Assembly: GCA_965240465.1 (NCBI GenBank)
Contig: OZ251219.1
Location: 928,001 to 992,000, forward strand
Reading direction: 5' to 3'
Source: a bacterium
GTDB taxonomy: Bacteria; SAR324; JACQKK01
DNA length: 64,000 nucleotides
The notes below the pieces were generated by a model, which saw nothing but the letters and a program-made list of their open reading frames with translations, was not told the origin of the DNA and did no database searches. The translations under genes and the position numbers were made by a program. The number at the start of each line of letters is the position of its first letter. Positions within the stretch are counted from its first letter, which is position 1. This document shows, piece by piece, positions 3,805 to 64,000 of the stretch.

Positions 3805-5034
3805 TTATTTTAGACCGCATCGCTTTAGAAATTCAAGCAGAAAGTCAAGAAATGCCTTTTGGGGCTGGAGGGTTAAGTGCAGGACTAAGATTTTTTCAGC
3901 TAGTAATTTCTGCGATACACCAGCCTGAGAATAATTAGCCTGAGAATAATTAGCCTGAGAATAATTAGCCTGAGAAGATCTTAGCAGGTTTTTCAGTTTT
4001 ACGGCATCTTTGGCAGTAATCACCCACACTCGTTCTTTGCTCAATTGCCGTAGGTGTTCAAGATCTTTGTTGGTGTAGGAATGGTGGTTTGGAAAATAGT
4101 AGCGGGCAATGATGTTCGCCCCTAAGCGTTTCAGTGAATGCTCCAAATGCTCAGGATGGGCAATTCCGCACCAGCTGCCTACCTCTAGCCCCTTCAGTGT
4201 AGACAGAGGATAGGATTGTTCATCTTGGAGATCACTCAGCCTCAGTTGTTCTGCGTCACAGTGAAATATGGGAATTTTTAATCCCTGTGCTTGCCATTCT
4301 GCTCGGCGTAGCGGGATATTATCATCATCAGATCGGGTAAGCAGCAAGACATCAGCCCGATGTGCTGCCCAAAGCGGCTCCCGCAATTCTCCCCGAGGTA
4401 GTAGGCGAGCCTCCTTCAGCGGTTGAGAGGCATCCCAGATCAGCACATTAAGACGCCGCTTTGGCTCATCTCTACCCCCCCCCTCCCGTACAAAAGCTAC
4501 ATGCTGGAAGGCATCATCCAAAACAGCCACCTGAGGGGCATCCCGAAGAACAGCAGTACGCAAATTAAATCCACGATCAGCACCTACATAAAAAGGAAGC
4601 AGGTCATGCTTAGTAGCCAGCATGGCTACTTCATCACCCAGCCAGCTGGCAGGGTTCTTCCTCCAGTAAGAATTATCATCTTCGCTCATGCACGCCCTTA
4701 AAGAACGAGCCCTTACCTGTCTGCGATAACCCCGACTTAAACACACCACCCGCCAACCCCTCTGACTTATCCAGCCCAGTAGCACATCTACCAGCGGGGT
4801 TTTCCCGCTACCACCAACACTTAATCCTCCCACCACAATACAAACCATCCCGCTTCTTCTAACCCAGTCCCAATCAGAATTATCATCCCGTTCCCTCTTA
4901 TAGCCTTGAATCAAGGCTCTCCATCCCAATCGCAGTCTGATTAGACTCCCATACAGAACCCAGAGCGGCCATCGGAGCAACCAATGAATTTTTATTATGT
5001 CCTGCTGCCGTGAGGTGGAATTAGTGGTGTTCAT
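3805..5034 (-). CDS. lpxK: Tetraacyldisaccharide 4'-kinase
   Basis: VGGLSVGGSGKTP, LSRGY, GDE, LDDAFQH, LLPRGELREP, ITAKDAVK. Confidence 0.95.
   Translation of the reverse strand: MNTTNSTSRQQDIIKIHWLLRWPLWVLYGSLIRLRLGWRALIQGYKRERDDNSDWDWVRRSGMVCIVVGGLSVGGSGKTPLVDVLLGWISQRGWRVVCLSRGYRRQVRARSLRACMSEDDNSYWRKNPASWLGDEVAMLATKHDLLPFYVGADRGFNLRTAVLRDAPQVAVLDDAFQHVAFVREGGGRDEPKRRLNVLIWDASQPLKEARLLPRGELREPLWAAHRADVLLLTRSDDDNIPLRRAEWQAQGLKIPIFHCDAEQLRLSDLQDEQSYPLSTLKGLEVGSWCGIAHPEHLEHSLKRLGANIIARYYFPNHHSYTNKDLEHLRQLSKERVWVITAKDAVKLKNLLRSSQANYSQANYSQANYSQAGVSQKLLAEKILVLHLTLQPQKAFLDFLLEFLKRCGLK
3922..3976. repeat. 15-bp in-frame tandem repeat in lpxK (SQANY x3)
   Basis: AGCCTGAGAATAATT x3 plus a partial copy. 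Confidence 0.92.
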
Positions 5035-5116
5035 TTAAGCTGTACTCAACATTAATTTATCTCTACACCAAAGCTATGGTAAAATGCCTATATTTTCTAG
5101 GATGGCATAATAAGCG

Positions 5117-5181
5117 GCGTATAGGCGTCGGACATATGTAGGCAGCGTATAGGCGTCGGACATGTAGGCAGCGTATAGGCG
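5117..5181. repeat. 26-28-bp tandem repeat, about 2.5 copies, in the lpxK/mltA divergent region
   Basis: GCGTATAGGCGTCGGACAT(AT)GTAGGCA units. Confidence 0.8.
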
Positions 5182-5202
5182 GCAAATAAATGGATTCATT
5201 AA

Positions 5203-6534
5203 ATGCAATACCATCAAAGCACCATTCAAACTAGCATTTCTGCTCTTGCTGGTAAGTGTTTCATAGGCACTTGGCAGCAACAGATTAATTTATTGCTAAT
5301 GTTATCGTTTAGTGTACTATGTTTCGCTTGCGGTCAATTTTCCGCAGTGCCAGTACGCCAAGTGAAAAAACTCAACCTAATAGATGGCTGTGATAAGCAA
5401 AGCTTGTCTCAATCAGCCCAACGCTCTTTAACTTATTATGAAAGACTTTCTCGCCTACCCTCATCGCCTGAGAAGCAATCGGAAACACCCCCTGTTTTTC
5501 TATTCGGTGAGCATAGTTACTCGGCTCTGGAAATGGTAGCTTCCACCCAACTATTCCTAAACCTGCTGGATAAATCTAATTCTCCTAAGGAACTTAACCA
5601 GTCATTGCAAAAACATTTTCTCTATTTTGAAATATCCAACTCCCAAAAAAAAATACTCTTTACTGGCTACTTTGAGCCAGAAATTCCTGCTAGCCGTAGA
5701 CCCACCAAAAAACTTAATACTCCTGTCCATGCTCGCCCCAAGGACTTGATCGCGGTGAACCTAAACAGATATGAAAACGCCAAACTGCCCTCCATTCAAC
5801 TTTATGGCAAATTGAAGAACGGCAAGGTGCAACCTTATGACTCCCGAATACAAATTCAGCAACGGAAATCTTTGAAAGGACGCGCCCATGTGATTGCTTG
5901 GGTGAACGAGGTAGATTTGTTTTTCCTCCAAATTCAAGGCTCAGGAACTCTACGCTTTGCAAACAACAAGATTGTTAGGATAGGTTATGCTGCCAGCAAT
6001 AGTAATCCTTATCGCAGCATTGGAGCAATACTGGTAGAGCAAGAAAAAATGCCGCTGGAGGATGTAACCATGCAATCCCTTAAGGCTTGGATCCATAGCC
6101 ACCCTCGGCAAGGGCGTGAACTGATGCTCTCTAACCCTAGCTACGTGTTTTTTGATGTTCGCAAGCAGGGACCCTTAGGTAACATTCAGCTGAAGCTGAC
6201 CCCTCAACGCTCACTGGCAGTAGATAGCAGCCTGCTGCCCAAGGGAGCACTGGCATTTGTGAGCACCCATCTTCCTGCTCCTCAGTTCTTAGATTCGGAA
6301 TCCTTACCGCCCTTCCAGTGCTTTATGATGATCCAAGATACTGGCGGAGCTATCCGTGGCTACAGACGGGGTGATATCTTCTTCGGCTCGGGACCAGAGG
6401 CAGAATGGAACGCTGGTCAAATGAAAAATACTGGACGACTATTCTTGCTGGTCGCCAAAAAATCTGCCTTGACATCTCTTCTGCCCGCAGAATCCTCTGA
6501 TAAATTTCCGTTGGGGTCTCCTGCTTCTCCGTAG
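5203..6534 (+). CDS. mltA: Membrane-bound lytic murein transglycosylase A
   Basis: FTGYFEP, FFLQIQGSG, NPSYVFF, QDTGGAI...DIFFG 3D domain; lipobox-like CFAC. Confidence 0.93.
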   Translation: MQYHQSTIQTSISALAGKCFIGTWQQQINLLLMLSFSVLCFACGQFSAVPVRQVKKLNLIDGCDKQSLSQSAQRSLTYYERLSRLPSSPEKQSETPPVFLFGEHSYSALEMVASTQLFLNLLDKSNSPKELNQSLQKHFLYFEISNSQKKILFTGYFEPEIPASRRPTKKLNTPVHARPKDLIAVNLNRYENAKLPSIQLYGKLKNGKVQPYDSRIQIQQRKSLKGRAHVIAWVNEVDLFFLQIQGSGTLRFANNKIVRIGYAASNSNPYRSIGAILVEQEKMPLEDVTMQSLKAWIHSHPRQGRELMLSNPSYVFFDVRKQGPLGNIQLKLTPQRSLAVDSSLLPKGALAFVSTHLPAPQFLDSESLPPFQCFMMIQDTGGAIRGYRRGDIFFGSGPEAEWNAGQMKNTGRLFLLVAKKSALTSLLPAESSDKFPLGSPASP

Positions 6535-7388: not shown

Positions 7389-7423
7389 CTAAAAGCGTCA
7401 GGCGTATTTTTCTATCTAGCAGT

Positions 7424-8443
7424 TTAACTGGCTTTAAGTATTGTTTTATCAAAGGGTGCCAGATGGCAGGCAGAGAAATGTTTGGGGTATATTTCCCTAG
7501 GGATCGGGACTTCTTTTTTGCAACGGTCTTCAGCATATGGGCAGCGAGGATGAAAAGGGCATCCCGAAGGTGGATTAATCGGGTTGGGGACTTCGCCTTT
7601 GATGACTTTTATGGGCGTGGTACTGGGTTTGGGTTCTGGGATGGCCTTCATAAGTGCCTGAGTGTAGGGATGCTGTGGTTTGGAGAATAGTTTTTCAGTG
7701 GGGGCGGTTTCCACCAGACGACCTAGGTACATAACAGCTACCCTCTTGCTGATGTATCTAACAACGGAGAGATCGTGGGAGATAAACAAGAAGGACAGAT
7801 TGTTATTTTTTTGCAGATCAGCCAATAGGTTGACTACTTGGGCTTGAATGGAAACATCTAAGGCAGAAACGGGTTCATCGGCTACAATGAGCCGTGGATT
7901 GAGTGCCAAAGCGCGAGCAATACCAATGCGTTGTCTTTGTCCGCCCGAGAATTCGTGGGGATATTTATGCATTTGCTCTGAGGTTAATCCTACTTGTTCA
8001 AACAGGTCTTTAATTTTTTTGGTGCGTTCTTCAGTAGTGCCCATTTTATGCACCAGCAGGGGTTCTGCCACGATGGTTCCTGCGGTCATGCGAGGATTGA
8101 GCGAAGAATAAGGGTCTTGAAAAATCATTTGCAATTTGCTGCGATACGGCTTGAGAGCAGAACGTTGCAGATGAGTAATATCGTTGCCAGCTAGGGTTAT
8201 TTTACCCGAAGTGGGTTCTAGCAGTCGTACTATTGTTCGTCCTACGGTGGATTTTCCGCAGCCAGATTCTCCTACTAGGCCTAGTGTTTCTGAATCTCCG
8301 ATCTGGAAACTAATTCCATCTACGGCTTTTAGCCAAGCATGGGTGCGGGAGAAGATTCCAGAACGCACTGGAAAATGCATCTTAAGGTTGTTCACCTTTA
8401 GCAAGGGTGTAGTAGATGAGGAAGTTGGGGCTGGTTTTTTCAT
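7424..8443 (-). CDS. Oligopeptide/dipeptide ABC transporter ATP-binding subunit (OppF/DppF type)
   Basis: GESGCGKST, FSGGQRQR, VADEP, C-terminal GCPFHPRC. Confidence 0.95.
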   Translation of the reverse strand: MKKPAPTSSSTTPLLKVNNLKMHFPVRSGIFSRTHAWLKAVDGISFQIGDSETLGLVGESGCGKSTVGRTIVRLLEPTSGKITLAGNDITHLQRSALKPYRSKLQMIFQDPYSSLNPRMTAGTIVAEPLLVHKMGTTEERTKKIKDLFEQVGLTSEQMHKYPHEFSGGQRQRIGIARALALNPRLIVADEPVSALDVSIQAQVVNLLADLQKNNNLSFLFISHDLSVVRYISKRVAVMYLGRLVETAPTEKLFSKPQHPYTQALMKAIPEPKPSTTPIKVIKGEVPNPINPPSGCPFHPRCPYAEDRCKKEVPIPREIYPKHFSACHLAPFDKTILKAS

Positions 8444-8488
8444 CTTCTGTTTAACGGGATTGACAAATAGGGGATGATATTGTGGTAC

Positions 8489-10579
8489 CTAAGCAGAGAG
8501 TTTTTCAGAGTGCCAACAAGCGGCTAGGTGTCCATCAGATTTTTTCTCTAGCGGGGGACGATGTTGACGGCACTTCTCAGTAGCATAAGAACAGCGATCT
8601 CTAAAGACACAGCCCGCGGGCAAATCATGCAGTGGAGGGACAATGCCGGGAATTTCCCTTAATCTCCCGGATTTTTGAGTACTCGGCAAGGAACGCATCA
8701 ATCCTAAGGTATAAGGATGCTTTGGGTTGGAAAAGAGGTCGTTAACCGAAGATTCTTCCACCTTGAAGCCCGCATACATGACGGCTACTCGTTGGCAGGT
8801 TTGGGCAACTACGCCTAAATCGTGGGTAATCATCAGGACCGCAGATTTGCTTTTATGGCAAAGATCTGCCAGTAATTCCAGAATCTGAGCTTGGATGGTA
8901 ACATCCAGGGCGGTGGTGGGTTCATCGGCAATGAGCACTTTGGGGTTGCAGGAAAGAGCCATGGCAATCATCACTCGCTGACGCATTCCCCCTGACATGT
9001 TATGCGGATATTCATCAATTTTGCGATGAGGCTCTGGAATTCGCACTACATCCAACATTTCTATCGTCTTTTGGCGGGCTTCTTTCTTAGACAATCCCTG
9101 GTGTAGGCGAATCACTTCTGATATCTGGAAACCTACCGTCAAGACTGGGTTAAGCGAAGTCATCGGCTCTTGAAAAATCATGGATATATCATTGCCTCTA
9201 ACTCGGCGTAGTTGATTTTCTTTGAGGGAAAGAAGGTCTTTACCCTCAAAATGGATAGATCCTGAGATTTCCACTGGAGGAGAGGGAATAAGCTTCAAAA
9301 TAGTGAGGGCGGCCACGGTTTTGCCACAGCCAGACTCACCTACCAAGCCCATAGTTTGGCCTTTTTTCAGATTCAGGGATAAGTTACTGACGGCCCGCAC
9401 TTTTCCTTGGCGAGCATGAAATACCACGCTGACATCTTCTATTTCCAGCAAATGCCGAGGCGATGATTTGGTATTTGACAAAGGGAGGGTAGCAACATTC
9501 TGCTTAGCGGCGGATTGTTTTTCTGAGCTCCGAGTCTGGGTTGTGAACACTTTTTTGAGATGATAGGGTAGGAGAGCAATAATGTTATGGGGAAGTCTAG
9601 CAGAAATAAATCTGAAATAATAATCCTTTTTATGGGTAGGAGGATTGATGCTTAAACTCATCGGCATATACCAAGGTTTGGTGATTTGAATTAGGGGATC
9701 TAGCCTTTCTCTCAAGGCATCCCCCAGCAGGTTGCTAGCCAGCACTAAGCAGGCAATAGCAGTACCCGGAGCCCACAGCAACCAAGGTGCCTGAGTAGCC
9801 TCAGCTAGACTAAGCTCAGCTAGCATGCGTCCCCATGAAGGAGTAGGGTCTGGGATCCCCAGCCCCAAAAAAGATAGAGAAGCTTCCAGCAATACTGCAT
9901 GTCCTAGTTGGGCACTGACCAATACCAGCAAAGGAGCGTAAAGATTTGGTAATAAATGAAATAATAAAATGCGAAAATAAGAAATCGCCTGCAAATGAGC
10001 CGCTTGAATAAATAAATGCTGACGCAACTCCAGCACCAAGGTACGCACTAAACGGGCCGTTCTTGGGGCCAAAGGAAGAGCAATCGCAACAACCACAGCC
10101 GTCTTTGAAGGACCCACTACCGCTACCAAAACAACCGCCGCTACCAACAAAGGCAAACTCTGCCAAGCTTCCAGCAATCGCTGTAATAAGAAATCGGCAG
10201 CCCGCGGTAGCAAACCACCCAACGCTCCCAGCAAAAATCCGATGCCACCCGATAATAAACACGCCCCGCAAGCAACACTCAGAGATACCCTAGCCCCAAA
10301 CAAAAGACGACTGAAAATATCGCGCCCTAAGGCATCAGCCCCCAGCCAATGAGACCCAGAGGGCAACGACAAGGGCTTTGCTACCGCCTGCAGGGGATCA
10401 TGCAGTACTAACAAATCGGCTGCCAAAGCACAGATAACCAAGCTCCCCAAAACCAGTGCCGCCAACCAAAACTGAACCCCCCATCCCCGCCACCACCAAC
10501 CAACTCGCAGGCTGGATGGCAACTGAGATGGCAATTGAGATGAGAACCGAGATGTTCTGCTAGGCAAAGTTCTTAGCAT
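8489..10579 (-). CDS. Fused ABC permease (DppC-like) and ATP-binding (DppD-like) protein
   Basis: N-terminal [11 protein letters not shown]...LSFLGLG..SWG; C-terminal [26 protein letters not shown]. Confidence 0.9.
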
Positions 10580-10597
10580 TCAGGTTTTTGATTAAGA

Positions 10598-11557
10598 TTA
10601 GGTCCCATGCAAACGAGGGTTGATAAAGGCATTGATAACATCCACTAGTAAATTGATCATCAAGGTCAGCAAAGTAAAAAGTAGCAACATGGTTCGTACC
10701 GATGACCAATCTCGCCAGCGAACCGCATGCACCAATGCCGTCCCCAAACCCGGAAAGTTGAAAACCGTCTCAGTCACCACCAATCCCCCCAACATAAAGG
10801 CAGCCTCCACCCCCAGCACCGTCACCAACGACGGCAACACATTGCGAACCGCATGCACCAATAACACTCCCCGAGGAGACAACCCCTTAGCCAATGCAGT
10901 ACGCCAATAATCCTGCTCAACAGCATCCAGCAAAGACGCACGAGTTATACGCTGCAACAATCCTGCCCCCCGAAATCCCACAATTAAAGACGGTAACCCC
11001 CACATCAAAACCTCCTGCAATCCAAAATCAACCCGAGTACTATATATAGGCAACACCCCAAACCACCTGAAACTAAACACCAAACCTAGCAATCCCAACC
11101 AAAAAGACGGCAAAGACAAACCCAGCAACCCCACTACCCTCAATACCCCGTCCACCAACCGACCCCGCTGCCAAACAGAACAAAACCCCAACCCAAATCC
11201 CAATAACACCATCCATCCCAATGATAGCAAACCCAGTCGAACACTTATTCCCAAAGCCCCCCACAAATAAGGACGCAATGCTTGCTCAAATACATTAGAA
11301 TATCCCCAATCACCACTGAAAAATCCTGCCAGCCACCTCCCATAGCGAAATATCCAGCTGCCATCCATCCCCCAATCATGCTCTAAATGCACCACTGCCT
11401 CTTTACTCGCCAAACCTGCCGACCCCAACAAAGCCTCCGCCGCACTGCCCGGTGCCAATTCGGCTAACCAAAAAGCAAACAACGACACCAACCCCAATCC
11501 CAAAATAGAACACCATAAACGAAACCCCAACAACCTCCATATACTCTGTCTAACCAT
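10598..11557 (-). CDS. Oligopeptide/dipeptide ABC permease (DppB/OppB type)
   Basis: DYWRTALAKGLS, HAVRN, ETVFNFPGLG, NPRL. Confidence 0.92.
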   Translation of the reverse strand: MVRQSIWRLLGFRLWCSILGLGLVSLFAFWLAELAPGSAAEALLGSAGLASKEAVVHLEHDWGMDGSWIFRYGRWLAGFFSGDWGYSNVFEQALRPYLWGALGISVRLGLLSLGWMVLLGFGLGFCSVWQRGRLVDGVLRVVGLLGLSLPSFWLGLLGLVFSFRWFGVLPIYSTRVDFGLQEVLMWGLPSLIVGFRGAGLLQRITRASLLDAVEQDYWRTALAKGLSPRGVLLVHAVRNVLPSLVTVLGVEAAFMLGGLVVTETVFNFPGLGTALVHAVRWRDWSSVRTMLLLFTLLTLMINLLVDVINAFINPRLHGT

Positions 11558-11586
11558 CTTGCTAATTCCCCCTGATATGCTCTCAA

Positions 11587-13245
11587 CTAGGGAGCTCTAT
11601 TACCCGTGGGGGTTGTTTTATTCTCCAGCCATACATTCTCCAGTCGCCAGCCATGATAGGCACTCTGGCGTAACTTCAATCCTTTCAATTCTGGCGATAA
11701 AATCGTGTGCCCCCGCAACTGTAGAATTATCGGACGAGCTTGTTCGGCGATGAGACGGCGTTCAATGATGTGTACCAATCGCAATCTTTTTCTAAAAGAG
11801 CGAGTTTGCGACTGCTTTTGAAATAAAACTTCCAGTTCCAGATTGCAATATCCCGAATAATTGCGTTCTGATTGGCAGGAGTAGTTTTCCAAGTACATAG
11901 CATCGGGGTTGTCGGGACCGAGGCCAGTGACGTTCATCCCCAGCTGGAAATCTCCTTCTTTGATACGGCTATGCCAAGCACTTCTATCTATCACCCGAAT
12001 GGTGGGACGGATGAAGGTTCTGCTTAATTGAGCGGTCAGCAAGGAAGCCGCCTTGCGATAAATTCTCACGTCCCGAGTAGATATGACTAAAGACAGCGGT
12101 TTTTTGGCTGAGTATCCTTGCTCGGCGAGGTATTTTTGGGCTTGCTGGAGGGATTTTCTATTTGCTTGCAAGCGGAGTATCTCCTTAGCGGGCAGTCCCC
12201 AAACCCCGTCTGGAGGAGACATAAGTGCTCCCCCTAAAAAAGATCCTTTTGTCCCCCCGAAAGCTTGTTGAAAGGCTTGGCGGTCAATGGCAAAATCGAT
12301 TGCTTGGCGGATGGAAGTATTCTTTAGCACGGGATCTTTAGGATTAAACAACAGATTCAAGGAAGCATTAGAAGGACGTCCTAAGCTAATCAAATTAGAG
12401 GCACGCTTTTGGATATCTTGAGCATCTTGAGGAGTAGCATCGTGAGGAAAGCCCAACTGTTGTTGACCTGATGCCATCGCCAACATGCGAGTGGGATGAT
12501 TAGGAATTATCAAATACACAATCTCATCCAGATAAGGCCGTCTTGGACGCCAATAATTCTCATTCCGTTGCAACTTGATTTCCTGACCCCGCCGCCAATG
12601 CACAAAACGCATCGGACCACTACCCACCGGCTCGGTACGCATCTTAGCCAAGGACACATGAGCTGGATAAACAGGAGAATAACCGCTAGCTAGCATGTCC
12701 AACAGAGAAGGTTGGGGAGCCCGCAGATGAAAACTTACCTGAAAATTGCCAGCGGTGGTAATCTTTTTCACTTGCTGATACCAAACTCGCCTCGGATTCT
12801 TACGCAATAACTGGGCATTCTCGCCTCTGATAACATCCCAAGTGTACTTAACATCGCTACTGGTTAAGGGTTTGCCATCGTGCCATTTTACGTCTTTTCT
12901 AAGTATCAAGCTTAGACGCAAGCCATCTTTGCTCCACTGCCAGCTTTTGGCCAGCTCGGGAACAATTCTTTTGGGTGATTCCACTGCTGAGCGGGGGTCA
13001 TAGGCTACCAGATTGTTAAACAAAGGCATGGCAGGAAAATTAGTACTCAAGGTAGCTTCCTCGTGAATAGACAAACTAGGAGGATTTCCTCGCAACTGAG
13101 CACGCAAAATCCCTCCCCGCGTCTGTGCCAATCCCTCGGTAGGATATGCCAGTAAGCCTCCTATGATGACGGACGCAATAATCACGAACGCAATAACCAC
13201 GAACGAAATAAAATAAGCTGGAACAAAAGAATTAGGGCGAATCAT
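11587..13245 (-). CDS. ABC transporter substrate-binding protein, family 5
   Basis: Signal peptide, PELAKSW, VKWHDGKPLTSSDVKYT, PVGSGP. Confidence 0.92.
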   Translation of the reverse strand: MIRPNSFVPAYFISFVVIAFVIIASVIIGGLLAYPTEGLAQTRGGILRAQLRGNPPSLSIHEEATLSTNFPAMPLFNNLVAYDPRSAVESPKRIVPELAKSWQWSKDGLRLSLILRKDVKWHDGKPLTSSDVKYTWDVIRGENAQLLRKNPRRVWYQQVKKITTAGNFQVSFHLRAPQPSLLDMLASGYSPVYPAHVSLAKMRTEPVGSGPMRFVHWRRGQEIKLQRNENYWRPRRPYLDEIVYLIIPNHPTRMLAMASGQQQLGFPHDATPQDAQDIQKRASNLISLGRPSNASLNLLFNPKDPVLKNTSIRQAIDFAIDRQAFQQAFGGTKGSFLGGALMSPPDGVWGLPAKEILRLQANRKSLQQAQKYLAEQGYSAKKPLSLVISTRDVRIYRKAASLLTAQLSRTFIRPTIRVIDRSAWHSRIKEGDFQLGMNVTGLGPDNPDAMYLENYSCQSERNYSGYCNLELEVLFQKQSQTRSFRKRLRLVHIIERRLIAEQARPIILQLRGHTILSPELKGLKLRQSAYHGWRLENVWLENKTTPTGNRAP

Positions 13246-40553: not shown

Positions 40554-40583
40554 TGATAATCACTAGGGATATTCTATTCTCCT

Positions 40584-40976: not shown

Positions 40977-41036
40977 GAAATTATCCTGTGTCTCTGGTTG
41001 GGGTTGTTTGTCATTGATATGTAGGAAAAATAAACG

Positions 41037-42516: not shown

Positions 42517-42574
42517 TGTTAGGCGTTAGACGATAGCGATTATCGCTGATTGCGTTTAGGCGAGAAGTGAATAA

Positions 42575-56951: not shown

Positions 56952-57003
56952 TGGGCGATTGTCTCACTGGGCAATTGTCTCATTTGGCAATTGTCTTATT
57001 GGG
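56926..57003. repeat. 16-bp tandem repeat, about 5 copies degrading rightwards, over the era start
   Basis: ATTGTCTCACTGGGCG units. Confidence 0.88.
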
Positions 57004-57009
57004 TAGCCC

Positions 57010-57037
57010 TTGACATCCTGAGGCGTATCTTTATTAT
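57010..57037 (+). promoter_or_regulatory. Possible sigma70 promoter upstream of the selA leader
   Basis: TTGACA-16 nt-TATTAT. Confidence 0.4.
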
Positions 57038-57224
57038 CCATTTGGCAATGCCTTCAAAGATAGTCTAACATGACCTACTAAGCTATCGCATAGGGTGCAT
57101 GCCTTGAAAAATAATAAAGCCAGCCGAGCTGTTTAGGTATCCTGATCTCAAGAGCTAAATTGCCTCCTGCGGTTGAAAATTGTAGGATGGGGCAGGGGGG
57201 GGGGTTGGTTTAGTTGCTTGGTCA

Positions 57225-57410
57225 ATGGTGCTGAGATGGTGCTGAGATGGTGCTGAGATGGTGCTGAGATGGTGCTGAGATGGTGCTGAGATGGTGCTGA
57301 GATGGTGCTGAGATGGTGCTGAGATGGTGCTGAGATGGTGCTGAGATGGTGCTGAGATGGTGCTGAGATAGTACTTAGATGGTATGAGATAGCACTGAGA
57401 TAACACTGAA
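57225..57410. repeat. 11-bp tandem repeat x13 perfect (57225-57367) plus about 4 decayed copies, upstream of selA
   Basis: ATGGTGCTGAG units. Confidence 0.96.
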
Positions 57411-57441
57411 ATGCTCTCCATGAATAAGCCTAGGGCTACCA

Positions 57442-58944
57442 ATGGTTACTGCAATTAAGAGAGGCACAAGCAAAGCTGGCACAAGCTGCGATCAATCATT
57501 AGAAAGTCAGGTTAAGCTCTCGCCTTCTATGCTAGCGGTGTTGCCTTCGGTGCGGGAAGCGGAAGCGTATTTGGTTCAGCAAATTGGTGGGGAATCTGAG
57601 CAGATCAAGAGAATTCGTCCGCAGCTTGAGGTTGCCTTAGGGCAGTTAAGAGGTTCTCTGAGGCAAGATAAAGCGGTGGTTATTTCACGTCAGCAGATTT
57701 TGGAACAGCTGGCTTATAAGTTATCGTCGTCGCTGAGTGGACTGCGGGAGGTTATTAATGCTAGTGGAGTGGTGTTACACACCAATTTGGGTAGGGCTCC
57801 CTTGGGGAGTGAGTTATTTAGGCGTACTTTGGCGTGCTTATCGGGGGCTGTCAATTTGGAATATGACCTGCTGAAAGGCGAGCGTGGTTTTCGGGCTACG
57901 GGAGTGGAAGTTTTGCTAAGCCAGCTGGCTGGGGCTGAAGATGGGCTGGTATCTAATAACAATGCGGCGGCGGTTTTGCTCCTGCTGACTGCTTTAGCCT
58001 CTCAGGCTGAGGTGATAGTATCGCGAGGAGAGTTGGTGGAAATCGGGGGAGGGTTTCGGGTGCCTGAAATCATGCAGCAATCGGGGGTGAAGTTGGTGGA
58101 GGTAGGCACTACCAACCGTACTTGTCTAGGCGATTATGCCCAAGCGATTACTTCTCGTACTGTGGCATTACTGAAGGTGCATCGTTCTAATTTCACCATG
58201 GGCGGATTTGTGGAGGAAGTTCCCTTATCAGAGTTGGCTCGGCTGGCGAGTAAGCAGCGGGTTTCTTTGTGGTGCGATCAGGGCAGTGCCAGTTTTTACC
58301 GTTTTCGGCAGCCAGAGCTTAAGAAAATGGAAACCCCAATGGAGCTGCTGAAAATGGGAGTACAAGTACTCACCTTCAGTGCTGATAAATTGTTGGGTTC
58401 GGTGCAGGCGGGCTTGGTGGTAGGTGATAAAAAAAGCATTGCTCGGATGCGGGCACATCCGTTGTTTCGCAGTTTGCGTTGCGACAAGGTCAGGTTGGCA
58501 CTACTGGAGCAAACCCTGTTGGATAGCTTGTCCCCCAAGACCTTTCCCGAGAAAAATCCGACCACTGCTTTTTTGGAACGCACCCCAGATGAGCTACATT
58601 CCTTGGCAAAAGCCTTGTTGAACTTGCTAGGTCAGCTTGAGAAAAAAGGCTTACACTGCCAATTGCTCCAGACAGAAAGCTTGGTGGGAGCTGGTGCTGC
58701 CCCGGACATAAAACTTCCCAGTTTGGCGTTATCCCTAGTACTGAAAAACATGTCGGCAGATAAGCTCACGCAACGACTCCGCACTGCTCGGGTGCCGATC
58801 ATTGCTCGTCAGCAAAAAGGACAAGTATGGCTGGATATGCGTACTCTATCTGAGGCTCAATTACCCATCATCGCGGAAACCTTGACCAAGATCACCATGG
58901 ATTTTGCTCAATCCTTGACACCACCAGCAAAACTAAGCGACTAA
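57442..58944 (+). CDS. selA: L-seryl-tRNA(Sec) selenium transferase
   Basis: VINASGVVLHTNLGRAP, NNNAAAV, SRGELVEIGGGFR, EVGTTNRT, FSADKLLG. Confidence 0.96.
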   Translation: MVTAIKRGTSKAGTSCDQSLESQVKLSPSMLAVLPSVREAEAYLVQQIGGESEQIKRIRPQLEVALGQLRGSLRQDKAVVISRQQILEQLAYKLSSSLSGLREVINASGVVLHTNLGRAPLGSELFRRTLACLSGAVNLEYDLLKGERGFRATGVEVLLSQLAGAEDGLVSNNNAAAVLLLLTALASQAEVIVSRGELVEIGGGFRVPEIMQQSGVKLVEVGTTNRTCLGDYAQAITSRTVALLKVHRSNFTMGGFVEEVPLSELARLASKQRVSLWCDQGSASFYRFRQPELKKMETPMELLKMGVQVLTFSADKLLGSVQAGLVVGDKKSIARMRAHPLFRSLRCDKVRLALLEQTLLDSLSPKTFPEKNPTTAFLERTPDELHSLAKALLNLLGQLEKKGLHCQLLQTESLVGAGAAPDIKLPSLALSLVLKNMSADKLTQRLRTARVPIIARQQKGQVWLDMRTLSEAQLPIIAETLTKITMDFAQSLTPPAKLSD

Positions 58945-59960
58945 GATAACTCCTCCAGTAATTCCCAATAGTGCTTTAGTCGCCAATTTTCCAGATCGCC
59001 TTTTTCAGTAGCCTCACGCACCGCACAATTAGGCTCACCGCGATGCCAACAATCCTGAAAAGAGCACTGCCCCGCAAACTCACAAATCCCCGGATAGCAA
59101 AGCCTTAAATCAGCTGCCTTGATATCCTGATGTATAAATTCACGCATTCCGGGAGAATCAATTAAAAAGCCTCCTCCCTCCCGCAAGGGCAACAACTGAG
59201 ATGCACTGGTGGTATGACGACCACGTCCTCCAGATCCTACTTCTCCTACCCGACGCCGAACTCCACATAAAGCATTGCTAAGACTAGTCTTACCCGCTCC
59301 AGAAGGTCCCACTAAAATTGTGCAGCCTCCTTGTAGTAGCCTAGCTAATTCTGGCACTCCTTCTTCCTGTGTTATGACCGCTCTTAAAACTTGAAGCCCT
59401 AGTCGCCGATAAGGATTTGCTAATTCGTCAAATATACCTTGGGGGGTCAAATCTAATTTAGTCACGCATAACAAAGTTTGTAAATTTGCATGTCTGGCAG
59501 CAAGCCATAACCGGTCCACCAAGCGAGTAGAAAAAATCGGTGATGTAGCTGCGGCTACTATCAATACCCTCTCTATATTTGCTGCCAGCAATTGCGATTC
59601 AACTCGTCCATGATGACCCCCATGCTTAACCTTACCAACCCGACGGTGTAATTCACTTTTGCGAGGTAGCAGCTCTCTGACCAAACCTTTTTTACCCTCC
59701 CAAACCTCAAATTTGACTCGGTCTCCAACCACCAAAGTTTGTTTATTTAGGCCTCTTATTTTATCCCTATCACGCAGTCTGCCAACCAAGCGGCAAGTGT
59801 ACTCCTGATCGCTGTGCCATACCTTACACAATTCACCGTAACTGGATGATATCCATCCATCCCTTAGTTCCTTTTCGGCATGTTCTGCCAACTTCTCCTC
59901 CCCTTTTTTGGGATTATTCTCCATGCTACTCTGTCCAACAAAAATGTTCTTATCCACCAT
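58941..59960 (-). CDS. rsgA: Ribosome small subunit-dependent GTPase A
   Basis: VVGDRV, TKLD, GPSGAGKTS, GRHTT, DSPG, C..DC.H..EP.C. Confidence 0.95.
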   Translation of the reverse strand: MVDKNIFVGQSSMENNPKKGEEKLAEHAEKELRDGWISSSYGELCKVWHSDQEYTCRLVGRLRDRDKIRGLNKQTLVVGDRVKFEVWEGKKGLVRELLPRKSELHRRVGKVKHGGHHGRVESQLLAANIERVLIVAAATSPIFSTRLVDRLWLAARHANLQTLLCVTKLDLTPQGIFDELANPYRRLGLQVLRAVITQEEGVPELARLLQGGCTILVGPSGAGKTSLSNALCGVRRRVGEVGSGGRGRHTTSASQLLPLREGGGFLIDSPGMREFIHQDIKAADLRLCYPGICEFAGQCSFQDCWHRGEPNCAVREATEKGDLENWRLKHYWELLEELS

Positions 59961-60416
59961 GTGTCATTAGCACATTTCTTAATCGCTAGTCACTATAACC
60001 CTATATCTTACTGAAAAAATGATAAGATATATTCGCTCAATATATGCTAATTTAGATTAGTAAATAATCCTACACTAATGATAATAATGATAAGTTATAA
60101 CATTCATGAAATGAAGAACTATGCCCGCCTATGTTCTGCTTAAGGGGTGTTTTTGTTCCCTGCTGTAATTATAAGATTATTCATTTTATTCCTTGTATAT
60201 CAATAATTTATAAGATGGGTATCCTGTAAATCCGCTTTCCTAGCCGATCTGTATTTTTCTGCAAGTGGGAACAAAACATAGCCAAAAAATGAAAATCTCT
60301 TTAAGAACAAACGATAAGATATTTTTTATAAAAAACATCAAAATATGACTTGAAAATAAGAATATAATAGTGGCAGACTAAGTGCGATTGGATGTTACCT
60401 AAGGGCAGGGGTAGTA

Positions 60417-60666
60417 GGGGATGATAGGAGGGGGGATGATAGGAGGGGGGATGATAGGAGGGGGGATGATAGGAGGGGGGATGATAGGAGGGGGGATGGA
60501 AGGGTAGCAGGTAGGGGGGGAGATGACAGGGCGGGGGGATGATAGGAGGGGGGATGGAAGGGTAGCAGGTAGGGGGGGAGATGACAGGGCGGGGGGATGA
60601 TAGGAGGGGGGATGGAAGGGTAGCAGGTAGGGGGGGAGATGACAGGGCGGGGGGGATGATAGGAGG
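60417..60666. repeat. G-rich composite repeat: 15-bp units about x4 followed by about 58-bp units x3
   Basis: ATGATAGGAGGGGGG; ATGATAGGAGGGGGGATGGAAGGGTAGCAGGTAGGGGGGGAGATGACAGGGCGGGGGG. Confidence 0.92.
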
Positions 60667-60896
60667 CGGCAGGCAGGGAAGCCAAGCCGTCAAGATTTAG
60701 TAAGCGGATGTCGTCTGTGGAATACCAAGGAGGTAGCTCATAAGAGGAGCAAGAATGCCTGCGGCTGAAGATAGGCATCTAGGAGCGGTGGATGGGTACA
60801 TCCCCCGCGGAAAATTAGAGAGGGAGGAAGAGTAATGTGTGTTGACTGTTGGAAAATGTTTGTTAGTAGTTATTAGCCAAGTTTTTGTATTTATAG

Positions 60897-62825
60897 ATGT
60901 TTGTCTGCCAGGGTACAGCTAAGACCTTAAATGGTTTCAAGCGTATAAACGTGCATCATCATTTACAGGAAGCCCTAGGTGCTTGGCATGATCTATATGA
61001 GAAAAAGGGAGGGGACCCTATCGGAATGGAATCTGCCTTGAACAGCCAGTTGGAAAGCCAATTTGCCACTGAGGCGATGGGAAAATTAGCACTGAGTGGG
61101 CAAATGAGTTGCATGTTGCGGGTGCGTGATATTCAAAGCTTCGTGACTGAATGCTCCTTGCTGAGAGATATTAAAATTGAAGTACTGGAACATATTTTAC
61201 TGGAACAGAATCTATCAGCCCGCTGGGCTACGGTGCGTGATACCTTGGCTAGAAATGCCTCTATCTTGTGTGATATTAAACCTATGCCAGCCTTGATGAG
61301 GCTGGAAACCTGTAAACAGCAATTGTCCGACCCTTTGTCTGTTTTGGGAAAGTTGTTGGTGGCTACCGCCTTATTTAATTTTGATCAGGATAAAGAACAT
61401 CCTCCCTTAAACTGGCTGGTTCACTTCAAAAGCAAGGCTTTTCCCGAACACAAATGGCATCATCAGGTCAAGGAAATGGAAGATTGGAGACCATCCAACC
61501 CCTTGTGTCGCTGGGAGTACCTAGCCGCAGACTTGATGCACGTGTTGTTTAGAGAAGCACGCTCCCAACTGCCCGAGCATTCATCTTATCAGGGTTTTCA
61601 GACTACTAAGGACGAGCAAGGTTTTGCCGTCCTTCCCGCTAATAGCAGTCGCAAAACCTATTGTTTATTTCAGCCTTTGTCAAAGGATGAAAAGCAGTAC
61701 TGCCAGCCTTTGTCAAAGGATGAAAAGCAGGATTGCCAGCCTTTGTCAAAGGATGAAAAGCAGGATTGCCAGCTTTTAACAAAGGATGAAAAGCGGGATT
61801 GCCAGCTTTTAACAAAGGATGAAAAGCAGGATTGCCAGCTCCTGTCCAGGGATGAGGACTATTCCACCCCGCCAACTGGGAACAACCCAACAGGAGAAGT
61901 AACAACCACAGCAGAGCCTGTTGCCAAAGACGCGGCAAAACCGCAGCAAATAGAGCTCTTTCCTCTGAATGCTAGCGATTTCCTACCCCAACTTCATCGC
62001 TTTGGTCATCGTCGCTTAGGACCTCAAACACCCCGCCTCCTAGCCGTGCTTATGGAGCAACTGGCAGTTGCCGAGCCAGCCATACCGCTCACCATCTCGC
62101 TTGAGAAAATCAGTACTCGGGTAGCCAGTGCAAACGATACTCCCAAGAAACATTCCTCCCGTAGAAAAAATCTGGTGAAAATCATCAACTGGCTACAGCA
62201 AGAAGTCCTTATGCATCATGTGCTGGATAATACCGACAGCACCCAGCAATCCCTAAGCAAAGGAGGATTATTGAACGTCTTGCGTTGGGAAGGACCGCAA
62301 CACATATTTGTTCCTCAGGATACTCATGACTATAAAGGCAACTATCCCCACAACTATCCCCACAACTATCCCCACAACTATCCCCACAACCAGCAAGATG
62401 CACACCAAGTGAGAATCCTATTGGACAGCAGCTTCTTCAATCCTGATGGTAGCTGCATGGCAGCACTCTGGAGAGACTTGCCTTCGGCACTCTTTTCTCC
62501 CGATAACCAAACCCACCCCTATGCACCGGCTTTGTTCGCCTTCATGAGACAAAAATGGAATTCTCAATCCAGAAAAACATGGACTATTCACGTACAAACC
62601 CTGCTGGAACAATGCGGAATTTGGTACAGTCCCTCTGGTCGCTACCGTGCCTTGGAAACCCTCAAAAGAGACCTAAACTTCATGAAACAACAAGGCTGGT
62701 TGTATAAATGGCACATCACTGAATATCCCCAAAGACAAACCCTCCACCAAGAATGCATCCTCACTGCTTCGGTGCCTGCAATAATTTCTAAAACCTGGAA
62801 AAAATCGGCTTCTTACTATGGGTGA
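60897..62825 (+). CDS. Hypothetical protein with a putative Rep/TrfA-like tandem winged-helix C-terminal region
   Basis: 642-aa ORF; C-terminal HPYAPALFAF..WTIHVQTLLEQCG..LETLKRDLNFMKQQGWLYKWHI resembles a replication-initiator WH2; QQIELF motif. The ORF is confident, the function is tentative. Confidence 0.55.
   Translation: MFVCQGTAKTLNGFKRINVHHHLQEALGAWHDLYEKKGGDPIGMESALNSQLESQFATEAMGKLALSGQMSCMLRVRDIQSFVTECSLLRDIKIEVLEHILLEQNLSARWATVRDTLARNASILCDIKPMPALMRLETCKQQLSDPLSVLGKLLVATALFNFDQDKEHPPLNWLVHFKSKAFPEHKWHHQVKEMEDWRPSNPLCRWEYLAADLMHVLFREARSQLPEHSSYQGFQTTKDEQGFAVLPANSSRKTYCLFQPLSKDEKQYCQPLSKDEKQDCQPLSKDEKQDCQLLTKDEKRDCQLLTKDEKQDCQLLSRDEDYSTPPTGNNPTGEVTTTAEPVAKDAAKPQQIELFPLNASDFLPQLHRFGHRRLGPQTPRLLAVLMEQLAVAEPAIPLTISLEKISTRVASANDTPKKHSSRRKNLVKIINWLQQEVLMHHVLDNTDSTQQSLSKGGLLNVLRWEGPQHIFVPQDTHDYKGNYPHNYPHNYPHNYPHNQQDAHQVRILLDSSFFNPDGSCMAALWRDLPSALFSPDNQTHPYAPALFAFMRQKWNSQSRKTWTIHVQTLLEQCGIWYSPSGRYRALETLKRDLNFMKQQGWLYKWHITEYPQRQTLHQECILTASVPAIISKTWKKSASYYG
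61671..61858. repeat. 33-bp in-frame repeat x5.5 (QPLSKDEKQDC)
   Basis: CAGCCTTTGTCAAAGGATGAAAAGCAGGATTGC and variants. Confidence 0.93.
62339..62390. repeat. 12-bp in-frame repeat x4 (NYPH)
   Basis: CAACTATCCCCA x4. Confidence 0.93.
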
Positions 62826-62966
62826 GCTTGCTTACGGTAATGCTTGCTCGCAGTAATAACTGTTCGCCATAACACTTACTGATAATTATTTAACAATCAC
62901 TATTCGTCAATTTAACCCACTTTCATTCATCAACAAAAGGATAGGACAAGCACAAAAGCCGAATAC

Positions 62967-63129
62967 GAAGGCCAAGTACAAAAACAAAAACAAAGATAGG
63001 GAGTGATTCTCGTATTAGTTCCCCGCAGAAACCCGGCACATCAAGGATGAATTGTGCACTTTCCCAAGGATTTGGATGGTTTCGGCCTGTGGTCAACGAG
63101 GATCACTCCTTCTTTGTCGCTTGGTTTTC
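62967..63129 (+). ncRNA. Candidate structured ncRNA, family unassigned
   Basis: Nested stems GAAGGCCAAG/CTTGGTTTTC, AGGGAGTGATTCTCGT/ACGAGGATCACTCCTT, CCGCAG/CTGTGG, GAAACC/GGTTTC, plus two apical hairpins; the non-Watson-Crick pairs in these stems are all G-U on the + strand. Confidence 0.6.
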
Positions 63130-63236
63130 TATTATATCCCGATACAGGCTGATTGTATGGAGTAAGAGCAAAGCCACCCGAACAGATGGTCATTATTGAT
63201 GGAATGGGGTAGAGTGCCTTAGCAGGAGTTTTCTGA

Positions 63237-64000
63237 GTGTCCCCTTCCCCTTCTTATTCATATCGCCTTGGTATGGTGCAGATGGATTCGGGCAACCAGA
63301 TGGATGCCAATCTTGAACAAATGTTGGGGTGGGTGAAAGAAGCTAGTCAGCAGGGAGTTTCTTTACTGGCTTTCCCAGAGATGTGTTTATACATCGGCGA
63401 TCATGGTGATCGGGTGAAGAACGCGATCCATGTTGATGATGAAAGCGATGCCACTATGGTACGCCTGAAAGAAGCAGCTATTAAAAATAAGATCTGGTTG
63501 ATGCTGGGCAGTGTGTCTGAGTTTGCAGGTCCTGATGTTAACAAGGTTTATAATTCTTCTCTCTTGCTGGGGGCAGATGGAAAGTTGCATGCACATTATC
63601 GCAAGAGGCATTTGTTTCAGGCTTTGTTGCCTGATATATCCATGCAGGAAACTCATTTTTTCTTAGCGGGGCAGGAGCCTCCCCCAGTGGTTAAGACTCA
63701 TTTTGGGAGGCTGGGTTTTTCCATCTGCTTTGATGTCCGCTTTGGCGAGCACTACAGGTACTTGCGAGATGCTGGAGCCGAATTGGTGTTTGTGCCTTCT
63801 AATTTTACCATCCCGACGGGCAAATATCACTGGGAGGTTTTATTGCGTGCCCGGGCGATAGAAAATCAGTTATTTATTGTGGCTCCTGCCCAAGTAGGTA
63901 CTCATCGGGGTTGGGGATACTCCTCTTATGGTCATAGCATGCTGGTTGACCCTTGGGGAGAAGTACTCTGTTGCCAGCCTGAGGGGATTGGGCTGTCGGT
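63237..64000 (+). CDS. Carbon-nitrogen hydrolase (nitrilase family, Nit1/deaminated-glutathione amidase-like); 3' truncated by window and absent from the ORF track
   Basis: GTG at 63237 with AGGAG RBS; LAFPEM, YRKRHLF, SICFDVRF (E-K-C triad), HWEVLLRARAIENQ, YGHSMLVDPWG. Confidence 0.92.
   Translation, partial: MSPSPSYSYRLGMVQMDSGNQMDANLEQMLGWVKEASQQGVSLLAFPEMCLYIGDHGDRVKNAIHVDDESDATMVRLKEAAIKNKIWLMLGSVSEFAGPDVNKVYNSSLLLGADGKLHAHYRKRHLFQALLPDISMQETHFFLAGQEPPPVVKTHFGRLGFSICFDVRFGEHYRYLRDAGAELVFVPSNFTIPTGKYHWEVLLRARAIENQLFIVAPAQVGTHRGWGYSSYGHSMLVDPWGEVLCCQPEGIGLS

Follow-up and report, generated by a model that had tools for sequence, protein, structure and literature searches.

A Sawtooth of GC Skew Runs through the Window and the Genome

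The DNA analyzed here is a stretch of 64,000 nucleotides (nt), referred to as the window, that corresponds to bases 928,001–992,000 of the single-contig, 1,599,138-bp genome of a SAR324 bacterium (assembly GCA_965240465.1, contig OZ251219.1), whose GidA protein has its nearest named relatives in metagenome-assembled genomes of the SAR324 cluster, at 59–62% identity. Along the plus strand of this stretch, an excess of G over C declines gradually, turns into an excess of C, and is reset abruptly, in most cases close to non-coding DNA. The analysis confirms that this gene-scale sawtooth of GC skew is real, that it is genome-wide, and that it is asymmetric, with abrupt changes running predominantly from C to G.

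To score changes, the GC skew of the preceding 300 nt was subtracted, at every tenth base, from that of the following 300 nt. Throughout the genome, 91 upward (C-to-G) jumps stand against 26 downward (G-to-C) jumps at a threshold of 0.6, 40 against 6 at 0.7, and 15 against 2 at 0.8; in the window, jumps of at least 0.45 number 12 up and 5 down. With open reading frames (ORFs) called by a plain rule that takes the longest frame (1199 ORFs, which make up 88% of the genome; control genomes were called alike), non-coding DNA was located within 50 bp of 71% of the up-jumps and 35% of the down-jumps, compared to 18% of 2000 random positions, which bears out the proposal of an earlier note on this DNA that the skew resets at intergenic regions. 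The 91 up-jumps are distributed over convergent (22), divergent (21), and co-directional (35) junctions, with 12 inside genes and 1 at the contig edge.

The six 60-nt base counts on which the earlier note had relied were reproduced exactly: G26/C3 at 33481–33540, G4/C25 at 34021–34080, G28/C10 at 39001–39060, G5/C26 at 40381–40440, G4/C27 at 11161–11220, and G23/C4 at 30961–31020. Absolute differences between G and C of at least 18 occur in 55 of 1066 such 60-nt windows, compared to a mean of 0.9 and a maximum of 5 in 200 mononucleotide shuffles. Six of the seven C-to-G switches that had been singled out score between 0.54 and 1.20 (7.4 kb, 0.63; 11.57 kb, 0.54; 30.6 kb, 0.95; 40.6 kb, 1.20; 57.1 kb, 0.63; 60.3 kb, 0.87), and the seventh, at 63.1 kb, is the weakest at 0.37. 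At 40.6 kb, the skew of 300-nt windows leaps from −0.44 to +0.68; within the gene at 30885–33395 it stays at +0.45 to +0.63 over more than 2 kb, and it stands at −0.47 at 34000–34299. The average amplitude at silent sites is about ±0.2, and whole-sequence skew reaches 0.6–0.8 in single genes.

The sawtooth is not an assembly artefact, because independently assembled contigs of public runs match the window without difference. Logan contigs from two runs of one sample matched pieces of the window at 0 differences, including a piece of 10,063 nt, and the run of a second study represents the same strain, with 0 differences over a 5,431-nt piece.

The ORFs of the window encode ordinary housekeeping functions, including an Opp-type transporter, MreB/C, PBP2, GidA, an ECF-type transporter, a TonB-dependent receptor, EF-P, HisRS, SelA, RsgA, and Era. 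The teeth and junctions referred to below are as follows.

7389..7423, no strand: convergent 35-bp spacer; up-jump of 0.63 at 7370
7424..11557, minus strand: Opp-type ABC operon of three abutting genes (permease, permease–ATPase fusion, ATPase) forming one tooth; skew declines from +0.28 to −0.65 on the plus strand and, at four-fold sites of the sense strand, from +0.76 to −0.55
11557..11587, no strand: co-directional 29-bp gap between the substrate-binding-protein gene and the permease gene; reset of 0.54 at 11590
30597..30884, no strand: divergent spacer; up-jump of 0.95 at 30560; 14-nt and 24-nt tandem arrays at 30605–30758
30885..34234, plus strand: two overlapping genes (double ABC-ATPase; CbiQ/EcfT-like) forming one tooth; skew of +0.6 over about 2 kb, then down to −0.56; four-fold skew from +0.81 to −0.70
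38367..40553, plus strand: TonB-dependent receptor gene; skew from +0.29 to −0.51 inside the single gene
40554..41036, no strand: co-directional spacer upstream of efp; largest up-jump of the window, 1.20 at 40680
40683–40959: purine-rich array with a 15-nt period, filling the spacer upstream of efp
42084..42574, no strand: divergent spacer; up-jump of 0.62 at 42150; 15-nt x 15.4 array containing AGGAGG at 42286–42516
56952..57441, no strand: divergent spacer; up-jump of 0.63 at 57080; 11-nt x 16 array at 57225–57401
57442..59960, both strands: convergent overlapping pair selA (plus) and rsgA (minus) that make up one tooth; skew on the plus strand goes from +0.38 to −0.40 and passes the shared 3′ ends (58941–58944) without a reset
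57442–58944, plus strand: selA (selenocysteine synthase) gene
59961..60896, no strand: divergent spacer; up-jump of 0.87 at 60340; G-rich array at 60417–60666
60897..62825, plus strand: ORF of unknown function, 642 amino acids; skew from +0.31 to −0.26

The middle gene of the Opp-type operon (8489–10579, minus strand) is a 696-amino-acid ORF in which an Opp-type permease is fused to an ABC ATPase, and the sign of the skew changes between its halves.

The Polarity Is Strongest at Silent Sites and Exchanges G for C

Gradients along genes were measured on the sense strand at four-fold degenerate sites of the 683 ORFs of at least 900 nt in this genome. GC skew at these sites falls monotonically by decile from −0.02 to −0.35, in the same way for genes on either strand, and AT skew stays flat (−0.112 to −0.121). 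The change is an exchange of two bases: along genes the share of G shrinks (0.219 to 0.149) and that of C grows (0.228 to 0.312), and both A (0.245 to 0.237) and T (0.307 to 0.302) stay level. The gradient is present in all eight four-fold codon families. Among NNR codons, G/(A+G) drops from about 0.41–0.50 to 0.28–0.35 in those of Lys, Glu, Gln, and Arg (AGR), with no change in Leu TTR codons; the rise of C in NNY codons is uneven and weaker than the effect at NNR.

The first and second codon positions follow the same polarity. First-position skew falls from 0.288 to 0.175, and amino-acid usage shifts from the first to the last quintile (Q x1.28, N x1.22, I x1.20, V x0.86, with similar values in the sister species introduced below), compared to a flat usage in 800 kb of pooled relatives. 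Two outcomes that the earlier note had held incompatible with its claim, a pattern carried by amino-acid composition only and switch points placed at random with respect to intergenic regions, were both absent; synonymous sites, which it had proposed to inspect, are where the pattern is strongest.

Hydrophobic segments are more G-skewed, by +0.23 per unit of the grand average of hydropathy (GRAVY) in this genome and +0.11 in the sister species, with 0.03–0.06 in controls (correlation of skew with hydrophobicity, r = 0.37). The pressure behind the sawtooth, acting on codon positions 1 and 2, may account for part of this link. Where genes are most strongly G-skewed, their four-fold sites also hold more T than A, with an AT skew of −0.25 at a GC skew of +0.76.

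The Unit of the Tooth Is the Spacer-to-Spacer Block

For the analysis of the unit, the genome was pooled with that of a sister species, the only other genome of the genus in the sample (one contig of 1,724,560 bp); skew residuals were adjusted for codon family, and a block was defined as a run of genes with gaps of at most 20 bp. Among the 1092 co-directional gene pairs examined, those that abut or overlap (gap ≤0, n = 139) show no reset (jump of −0.003 ± 0.029), and the downstream gene lies 0.184 ± 0.027 below the upstream gene (p = 2e-9). Resets amount to 0.055 at gaps of 1–20 bp, 0.119 at 20–60 bp, and 0.231 ± 0.024 at 60–150 bp. Convergent genes follow the same rule: at distances of 20 bp or less (n = 57) their 3′ ends are neutral (−0.02) without a jump, and at gaps of 60–150 bp (n = 70) the 3′ ends stand at −0.218 and the jump at +0.435. 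Divergent spacers yield 0.334. In every type of block, the skew of the plus strand falls from positive to negative, and abutting convergent blocks (n = 62), with successive values of 0.248, 0.130, 0.022, 0.019, −0.097, and −0.180, form one tooth and not two. Twin-domain supercoiling alone was rejected as a cause, since it predicts an even profile across abutting convergent pairs and the observed profile is odd.

The polarity decays with distance from the spacer. In blocks of at least 2.5 kb, four-fold sites adjacent to a spacer carry G at 1.197 times and C at 0.776 times expectation where the sense strand points outward; where it points inward, the last 250 nt before the spacer hold the mirror image, with C at 1.183 and G at 0.783 times. 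A and T remain at 0.92–1.06 of expectation in every distance bin. The effect fades over approximately 1–1.5 kb and is gone by about 1.5 kb, and a length-scaled, “N-domain” type of reading of the teeth was dropped in favor of this decay. Silent-site jumps differ by spacer type (convergent, 0.357; divergent, 0.314; co-directional, 0.21), as does the position of the switch, which lies near the middle of divergent spacers of 150–400 bp and of convergent spacers of 60–150 bp. In co-directional spacers of 150–400 bp it falls in the first eighth to quarter, just past the stop codon of the upstream gene, and therefore promoter and 5′ leader fall on the side of the downstream unit. Positive skew begins in non-coding DNA about 160 nt upstream of start codons, and leaders stand at +0.05 to +0.11; a coarser division of spacers at their midpoints had given a weak polarity (+0.049 upstream, 0.00 downstream) and is superseded by these finer profiles. 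Together, the data show that the polarity is anchored at spacers of roughly 20–60 bp or more, and that the effects of the two flanking spacers sum to the tooth. Put in terms of the sense strand, each unit starts rich in G and poor in C and finishes rich in C and poor in G.

The independence from gene orientation that the earlier note had described holds in this form: the unit is the block from spacer to spacer, whatever the orientation of the genes inside. Its conclusion that transcription direction alone does not explain the switches does not follow. A sense-strand gradient from a G-rich 5′ part to a C-rich 3′ part reads identically on the opposite strand; being unchanged by reverse complementation, it produces up-jumps at divergent, convergent, and co-directional junctions alike, so the variety of junctions does not speak against transcription.

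Based on these profiles, the tooth is probably the transcription unit. Resets are absent inside operons and the co-directional switch follows the upstream stop codon; in addition, leaders join the downstream tooth, and read-through would account for the single tooth across abutting convergent genes. Comparison of orthologues suggests a further property of the underlying force. Family-adjusted four-fold skew correlates between the two genomes (r = 0.61; 796/883 reciprocal-best pairs, median identity 64%), and the correlation is still r = 0.51 where neither neighbor is conserved, which is not as expected if flanking sites alone set the skew. We read this correlation as pointing to a force that is stable and locus-specific between the two species.

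An origin in translation, by way of a codon ramp, the avoidance of nonsense errors, or amino-acid composition alone, is highly improbable. Codon bias is known to change along genes; Escherichia coli has a weak gradient, although of opposite sign, and the correlation of skew with hydrophobicity would fit as well. However, the start codons of abutting genes pass without a reset, the polarity extends into non-coding leaders and spacers, every four-fold family is affected, and highly expressed genes are not extreme, with four-fold skews of −0.24 to +0.12 for tuf, fusA, and ribosomal-protein genes. Codon optimality and a translation ramp in particular were ruled out by these highly expressed genes and by the absence of operon-internal resets.

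A Single Replication Origin and a Distinct Replication Signature

A C-to-G switch is also the sign left by a replication origin, and the earlier note had proposed many origins or dispersed initiation. Over the whole genome, the cumulative GC skew bottoms out once, at 607,846, and peaks once, at 1,562,157. The sole DnaA-family match (605,584–606,018) is located 2 kb from the minimum, and no switch of the window lies there; the sister species likewise has a single minimum and a single maximum. With a single global minimum beside dnaA, the proposal of many origins is not supported.

The replication asymmetry of the genome also differs in kind. Between leading and lagging genes, four-fold GC skew changes by +0.22 and four-fold AT skew by −0.05 (about −0.12 in the sister species), a coupling of the two skews; along a tooth, the shift at four-fold sites is about 0.3 in GC skew and 0 to −0.04 in AT skew, leaving A and T untouched, and a signature of the replication type is thus not supported. 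The intragenic gradient adds onto the leading/lagging offset, and its local amplitude of about 0.2 is roughly twice the replication offset of 0.09–0.105. Okazaki priming phased to spacers was rejected on the same comparison, because its amplitude could at most equal the replication offset and its signature differs.

More generally, DNA synthesis that starts at dispersed spacers, through small origins, R-loop priming, or Okazaki phasing, and leaves a replication-type asymmetry over 1–3 kb is an improbable source of the teeth. The sign of the switch and the two-sided effect, for which gene orientation is irrelevant, would agree with it, and the 1–1.5-kb range is similar to the length of bacterial Okazaki fragments, which is of that scale. 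The shape also resembles human skew “N-domains”. The bidirectional asymmetries at CpG islands are similar in shape as well (PMC2817419). Against it stand the single minimum beside dnaA and the single maximum in both genomes, the AT component that replication asymmetry has and the sawtooth lacks, the local amplitude of about twice the replication offset, the absence of resets where genes abut, the weaker effect at co-directional spacers, the orthologue correlation of r = 0.51 even without conserved neighbors, and young mutations that carry no matching asymmetry (see below).

Genes of this genome have no preference for the leading strand (464 leading and 470 lagging among 934 ORFs), which is unusual given its clear replication skew.

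The Sawtooth Is Specific to the Genus

Controls comprised five relatives with larger genomes from outside the genus (three of the same family, two of the same order; 100–200 kb each) and 200 kb of E. coli. The sister species shows the pattern in full: four-fold GC skew falls from +0.03 to −0.29 along genes, and up-jumps outnumber down-jumps by 85 to 9 at 0.6 and by 42 to 2 at 0.7. In the sampled 100–200 kb of each of the five relatives there is no sawtooth, and profiles are flat, with a change of at most about 0.08. The per-gene standard deviation of four-fold skew is 0.11–0.18 in the relatives and 0.28–0.31 in the genus. The E. coli segment has no up-jump above 0.5, and its weak gradient of opposite sign runs from 0.035 to 0.198 over 82 genes. 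The sawtooth is specific to the genus, being present in both of its genomes and in none of the five relatives sampled.

The presence of repair and transcription genes was compared between this genome (G000), the sister species (G001), and the relatives G004, G008, and G009. Rho, RNase HI, UDG, Mfd (TRCF), MutS, RecA, MutL, RecJ, and NusG were found in all five, and the RecC family (Exonuc_V_gamma) was found in none of them. In a search of 12 relatives, rho was missed only in the incomplete genomes G003 and G006. Scans for promoter patterns in the window and in one stretch of a relative remained at the level of shuffled sequence. The same holds for intrinsic-terminator-like patterns in the window (31 compared to 21.3 ± 5.3, and 18 compared to 21.2 ± 4.0).

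Repeat Arrays Accompany the Switches but Do Not Drive Them

The genome contains 828 non-overlapping tandem arrays. An array lies within 150 bp of 55 of the 91 up-jumps, compared to 278 of 836 spacer midpoints, and in this respect the coincidence of switches with repeats described in the earlier note stands. Its suggestion that the process may also generate the repeats is not supported, nor are repeats supported as a driver: silent-site jumps flanking a spacer are no larger when the spacer contains an array (0.237 versus 0.248, 0.170 versus 0.327, 0.259 versus 0.272), and relatives without a sawtooth are repeat-rich too (21–30 arrays per 100 kb, with 52 in this genome, 37 in the sister species, and 8 in E. 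coli). Tandem arrays were rejected as the cause on these two grounds. When all arrays are masked, 76 up-jumps and 20 down-jumps remain at 0.6, and the asymmetry is kept.

Several arrays are distinctive in their own right. The purine-rich arrays with a 15-nt period at 40683–40959, 42286–42516, and 60417–60666 repeat Shine-Dalgarno-like AGGAGG/GGAGG motifs 13–19 times, and they sit directly upstream of efp, of an EPSP-synthase-family gene, and of the 642-amino-acid ORF of unknown function, respectively. The ribosomal protein S16 gene (50208–50885, minus strand) has a long C-terminal extension that derives from a 15-nt x 15.9 tandem array. Outside the window, at 255696–271494 of the genome, four partial matches to the C-terminal part of RNase HI, with in-frame stops and a spacing of approximately 3.0–3.5 kb, come after an intact copy of the gene; the arrangement looks like a large tandem repeat that includes a piece of the gene.

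Young Mutations Do Not Match the Skew

Arrays also provide a sample of young, polarized mutations, defined as bases that differ in a single interior copy of an array (singletons). Transitions dominate the singleton spectrum, and changes from G:C to C:G are rare (10/349 and 74/1231). If mutation had produced the skew, C should be lost in excess from the G-rich strand. With arrays oriented by their own skew, the ratio of C to G loss on that strand is 0.80 (8/524 versus 39/2036). With indel-containing arrays aligned to their consensus, it is 1.04–1.11 at flank skews of 0.1 or 0.2 and 0.42, resting on a single C loss, at a flank skew of 0.3. With indel-free arrays of at least four copies from both genomes, it is 0.61–0.87; a flank skew of at least 0.10 leaves 133 arrays with 106 interior singletons, among which C loss (15/1224 opportunities) and G loss (48/2438) stand at a ratio of 0.62. 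Mutational equilibrium would call for a ratio of about 2, which these indel-free arrays reject at flank skews of 0.10 or 0.15 (p ≤ 0.002, with p < 0.001 at 0.10). Three of four singleton analyses therefore lack an excess of C loss on the G-rich strand, and the least strict one, described below, shows some, which speaks against the mutational origin proposed in the earlier note. Young mutations appear, with moderate confidence, to erode the skew rather than to create it, and this points to a fixation bias, by selection or by biased conversion. We infer that the force acts as such a bias, ranking G > A ~ T > C, and not a bias of point mutation.

A transcription-coupled asymmetry of mutation or repair that changes along the unit is, in this light, rather unlikely. 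It would, for example, expose or R-loop the non-template strand near the 5′ end and produce the opposite asymmetry at the 3′ end by antisense transcription or graded transcription-coupled repair. Several observations agree with it: the tooth coincides with the operon, positive skew starts within the leader, T exceeds A as well in the most G-skewed genes (AT skew of −0.25), G skew is higher (+0.23 per GRAVY unit) in genes for membrane proteins, whose transcription is tethered to the membrane, one singleton analysis gave ratios of C to G loss of 1.5–2.2, and mfd, rnhA, and UDG are present, so that the pathways exist; the fungal analogue discussed below has been treated in such terms (PMC3315797). 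On the other side, the flat four-fold AT skew (−0.112 to −0.121) speaks against cytosine deamination, the sign turns to C over G at 3′ ends with an amplitude equal to that at 5′ ends, and the largest jumps occur at convergent spacers, where no promoter is needed. Three of the four singleton analyses show no excess C loss, and G:C to C:G changes are rare. The deamination of single-stranded DNA that the earlier note had invoked meets the same difficulty, since T should rise as C falls, and A and T are flat instead. Its further suggestion of break resection with single-strand damage was rejected, because the geometry described for meiotic breaks predicts the opposite sign (PMC7615360).

A strand-asymmetric, biased gene conversion anchored at unit boundaries is the rival that fits the signature and the symmetry best, yet overall it appears unlikely. 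Breaks or nicks at a boundary would be followed by 5′-to-3′ resection and by invasion of another genome copy by the 3′ tail; mismatches would be corrected against the invading strand only when recognized, and G alleles of the outward strand would spread. Mismatch repair recognizes G.G well and C.C poorly. The geometry derived in this way has the right sign, reproduces the ranking G > A ~ T > C, in which A and T are neutral, and gives mirror symmetry whatever the orientation of genes; the 1–1.5-kb decay is tract-like, a fixation bias fits the symmetric young mutations, non-synonymous sites are affected too, and recA, recJ, mutS, and mutL are present. However, the co-directional switch lies beside the upstream stop and not in mid-spacer, indicating unit structure, and co-directional jumps (0.21) are weaker than convergent or divergent ones. 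Relatives without a sawtooth have the same repair genes, the NNY effect is weaker and more uneven than the NNR effect where equality is predicted, and the rarity of G–C transversions would demand a strong bias. No report of such an effect was found among the papers listed in a literature search, none of which was on bacteria.

Other Features of the Window and Genome

Further observations concern individual loci. One ORF of the window (47320–48336, minus strand) fuses RNase HII to a UPF0102/YraN-type domain. The window also contains a Type ISP restriction-modification enzyme (21969–25028, minus strand) and a TdeIII-type restriction enzyme with an adjacent methylase (34249–36679, minus strand); both restriction loci have a low GC content of 0.34–0.40. 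In the ORF listing of the genome, at about 73,000–83,000, the str/S10 ribosomal cluster seems to end after rplB, with unrelated ORFs next, which suggests that the str/S10 operon has been rearranged in this genome.

Discussion

The sawtooth described here is probably organized by transcription units, and among the mechanisms considered, selection on the C-versus-G content of nascent RNA is tentatively ranked first. According to this model, RNA that nears the boundary of a unit, whether sense or antisense, would become rich in C and poor in G, which is the composition that the termination factor Rho needs, and transcription would be halted before it enters the next unit. The G-rich 5′ parts would represent the mirror image of the same rule as applied to antisense RNA, and read-through between abutting convergent genes would make of them a single tooth. 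An excess of C over G is the main known descriptor of Rho-binding sites (PMC6144790). In the genomes analyzed here, four-fold sites of the last 250 nt before a spacer have this composition on the inward-running strand, with C at 1.18 and G at 0.78 times expectation. The presence of rho and nusG agrees with the model, as do intrinsic-terminator-like patterns that are no commoner in the window than in shuffled sequence.

Several points weigh against selection on nascent RNA. The C-rich phase ends about 40 nt past stop codons, and therefore the ribosome-free 3′ trailer, where Rho would be expected to load, is not the most C-rich part. A gradient on the scale of a kilobase exceeds the needs of a Rho-binding site of 60–80 nt, and the equal amplitude, both on the sense and antisense sides and at convergent (0.357) as compared to divergent (0.314) spacers, is unpredicted by selection and would be natural for a process purely at the level of DNA. 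Selection at silent sites that is strong enough to shift amino acids is demanding for a reduced genome of 1.6 Mb. The contrast of gene content (10 families) yielded no correlate of the sawtooth, relatives without it also carry rho and nusG, and at locus L025 of G008, which has no sawtooth, terminator-like patterns are likewise at the level of shuffled sequence. The evidence from young mutations has its own limits: tandem arrays are a special, young class of sequence, and the least strict of the singleton analyses, confined to this genome and to arrays of at least three copies with edge copies kept in three-copy arrays, gave ratios of C to G loss of 1.5 (39/1135 versus 54/2365) and 2.2 (15/372 versus 18/994), at an estimated p of approximately 0.03–0.06.

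Alternatively, a process at the level of DNA might produce the sawtooth, setting out from each boundary between transcription units and reaching about 1 kb outward on both sides, with strand-asymmetric gene conversion driven by unequal recognition of G.G and C.C mismatches or local outward DNA synthesis as candidates. We consider this rather unlikely. If true, it would constitute an undescribed force that acts on bacterial codon and amino-acid usage at the scale of genes, independent of the sense of transcription.

Irrespective of mechanism, the observations bear on how bacterial strand composition is interpreted. It is normally read as one replication signal combined with a weak, uniform transcription signal. 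The sawtooth is a third component, which is local, polar, and stronger than the replication skew. Synonymous codon choice flips within operons, and amino-acid usage differs between the start and the end of a unit; in genomes of this kind, such a component would mislead skew-based origin finders and measures of codon usage, as well as tests for horizontal transfer. The signature, with its swap of G and C, neutral A and T, mirror-image sides of the spacer, kilobase range, and no matching asymmetry in young mutations, narrows the possible mechanisms to a few that can be tested, and the restriction to one genus with reduced genomes offers a clean contrast with close relatives in the search for a cause.

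Comparison with Known Strand Asymmetries

We class the sawtooth as a compositional strand asymmetry anchored at genomic landmarks, in a bacterial, gene-scale form. Among the papers listed by literature searches there was no bacterial report of such a sawtooth and, apart from one incidental mention, nothing that links SAR324 with GC skew.

In the classical transcription-associated asymmetry, deamination of the non-template strand acts uniformly along the gene and yields G over C together with T over A; it is not known to turn into C over G. The sawtooth shares with it a G-rich sense strand in the 5′ parts of units, T-rich in the most skewed genes; in contrast, four-fold AT skew is flat here and GC skew changes sign along the unit. 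A replication-origin switch resembles the teeth in that it runs from C to G on a given strand and enriches G on the strand leading away. It differs in occurring once per chromosome beside dnaA, in extending over megabases, and in coupling G over C with T over A in these very genomes, whereas the switches of the sawtooth number in the hundreds, act over about a kilobase, and leave A and T out.

Mammalian skew “N-domains” are sawteeth as well, in which steep rises at fixed positions are followed by a slow descent to the next. The asymmetries at CpG islands share this shape (PMC2817419). Both mammalian patterns are, like the one reported here, two-sided and irrespective of the genes at the site. 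They span hundreds of kilobases to megabases, are ascribed to the polarity of replication forks, and have a T–A skew component; the bacterial sawtooth is about a thousand times smaller in scale.

The C-over-G “bubbles” of Rho-dependent terminators are similar in their composition, with C up, G down, and A and U indifferent on the RNA to be terminated (PMC6144790). Known Rho-binding sites are local and measure 60–80 nt, unlike the sawtooth, which is an operon-wide gradient over kilobases that is mirrored on the antisense side.

The closest pattern described is the intragenic GC-skew gradient of unicellular fungi (PMC3315797). The two share the gradient at four-fold sites, its reach into non-coding flanks, the shift in amino acids, and a nearly uniform AT skew that is coupled to GC skew only at the positive end; for the fungal gradient, too, both mutational and adaptive explanations have been proposed. 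The sign is the opposite, since fungal genes are C-biased at the 5′ end and G-biased at the 3′ end. Moreover, the fungal pattern is eukaryotic, dependent on Pol II, and organized with one gene per unit, whereas here the organism is a bacterium and the unit is the operon or block, with a local amplitude, reaching window skews of 0.6–0.8, that lies far above the fungal one.

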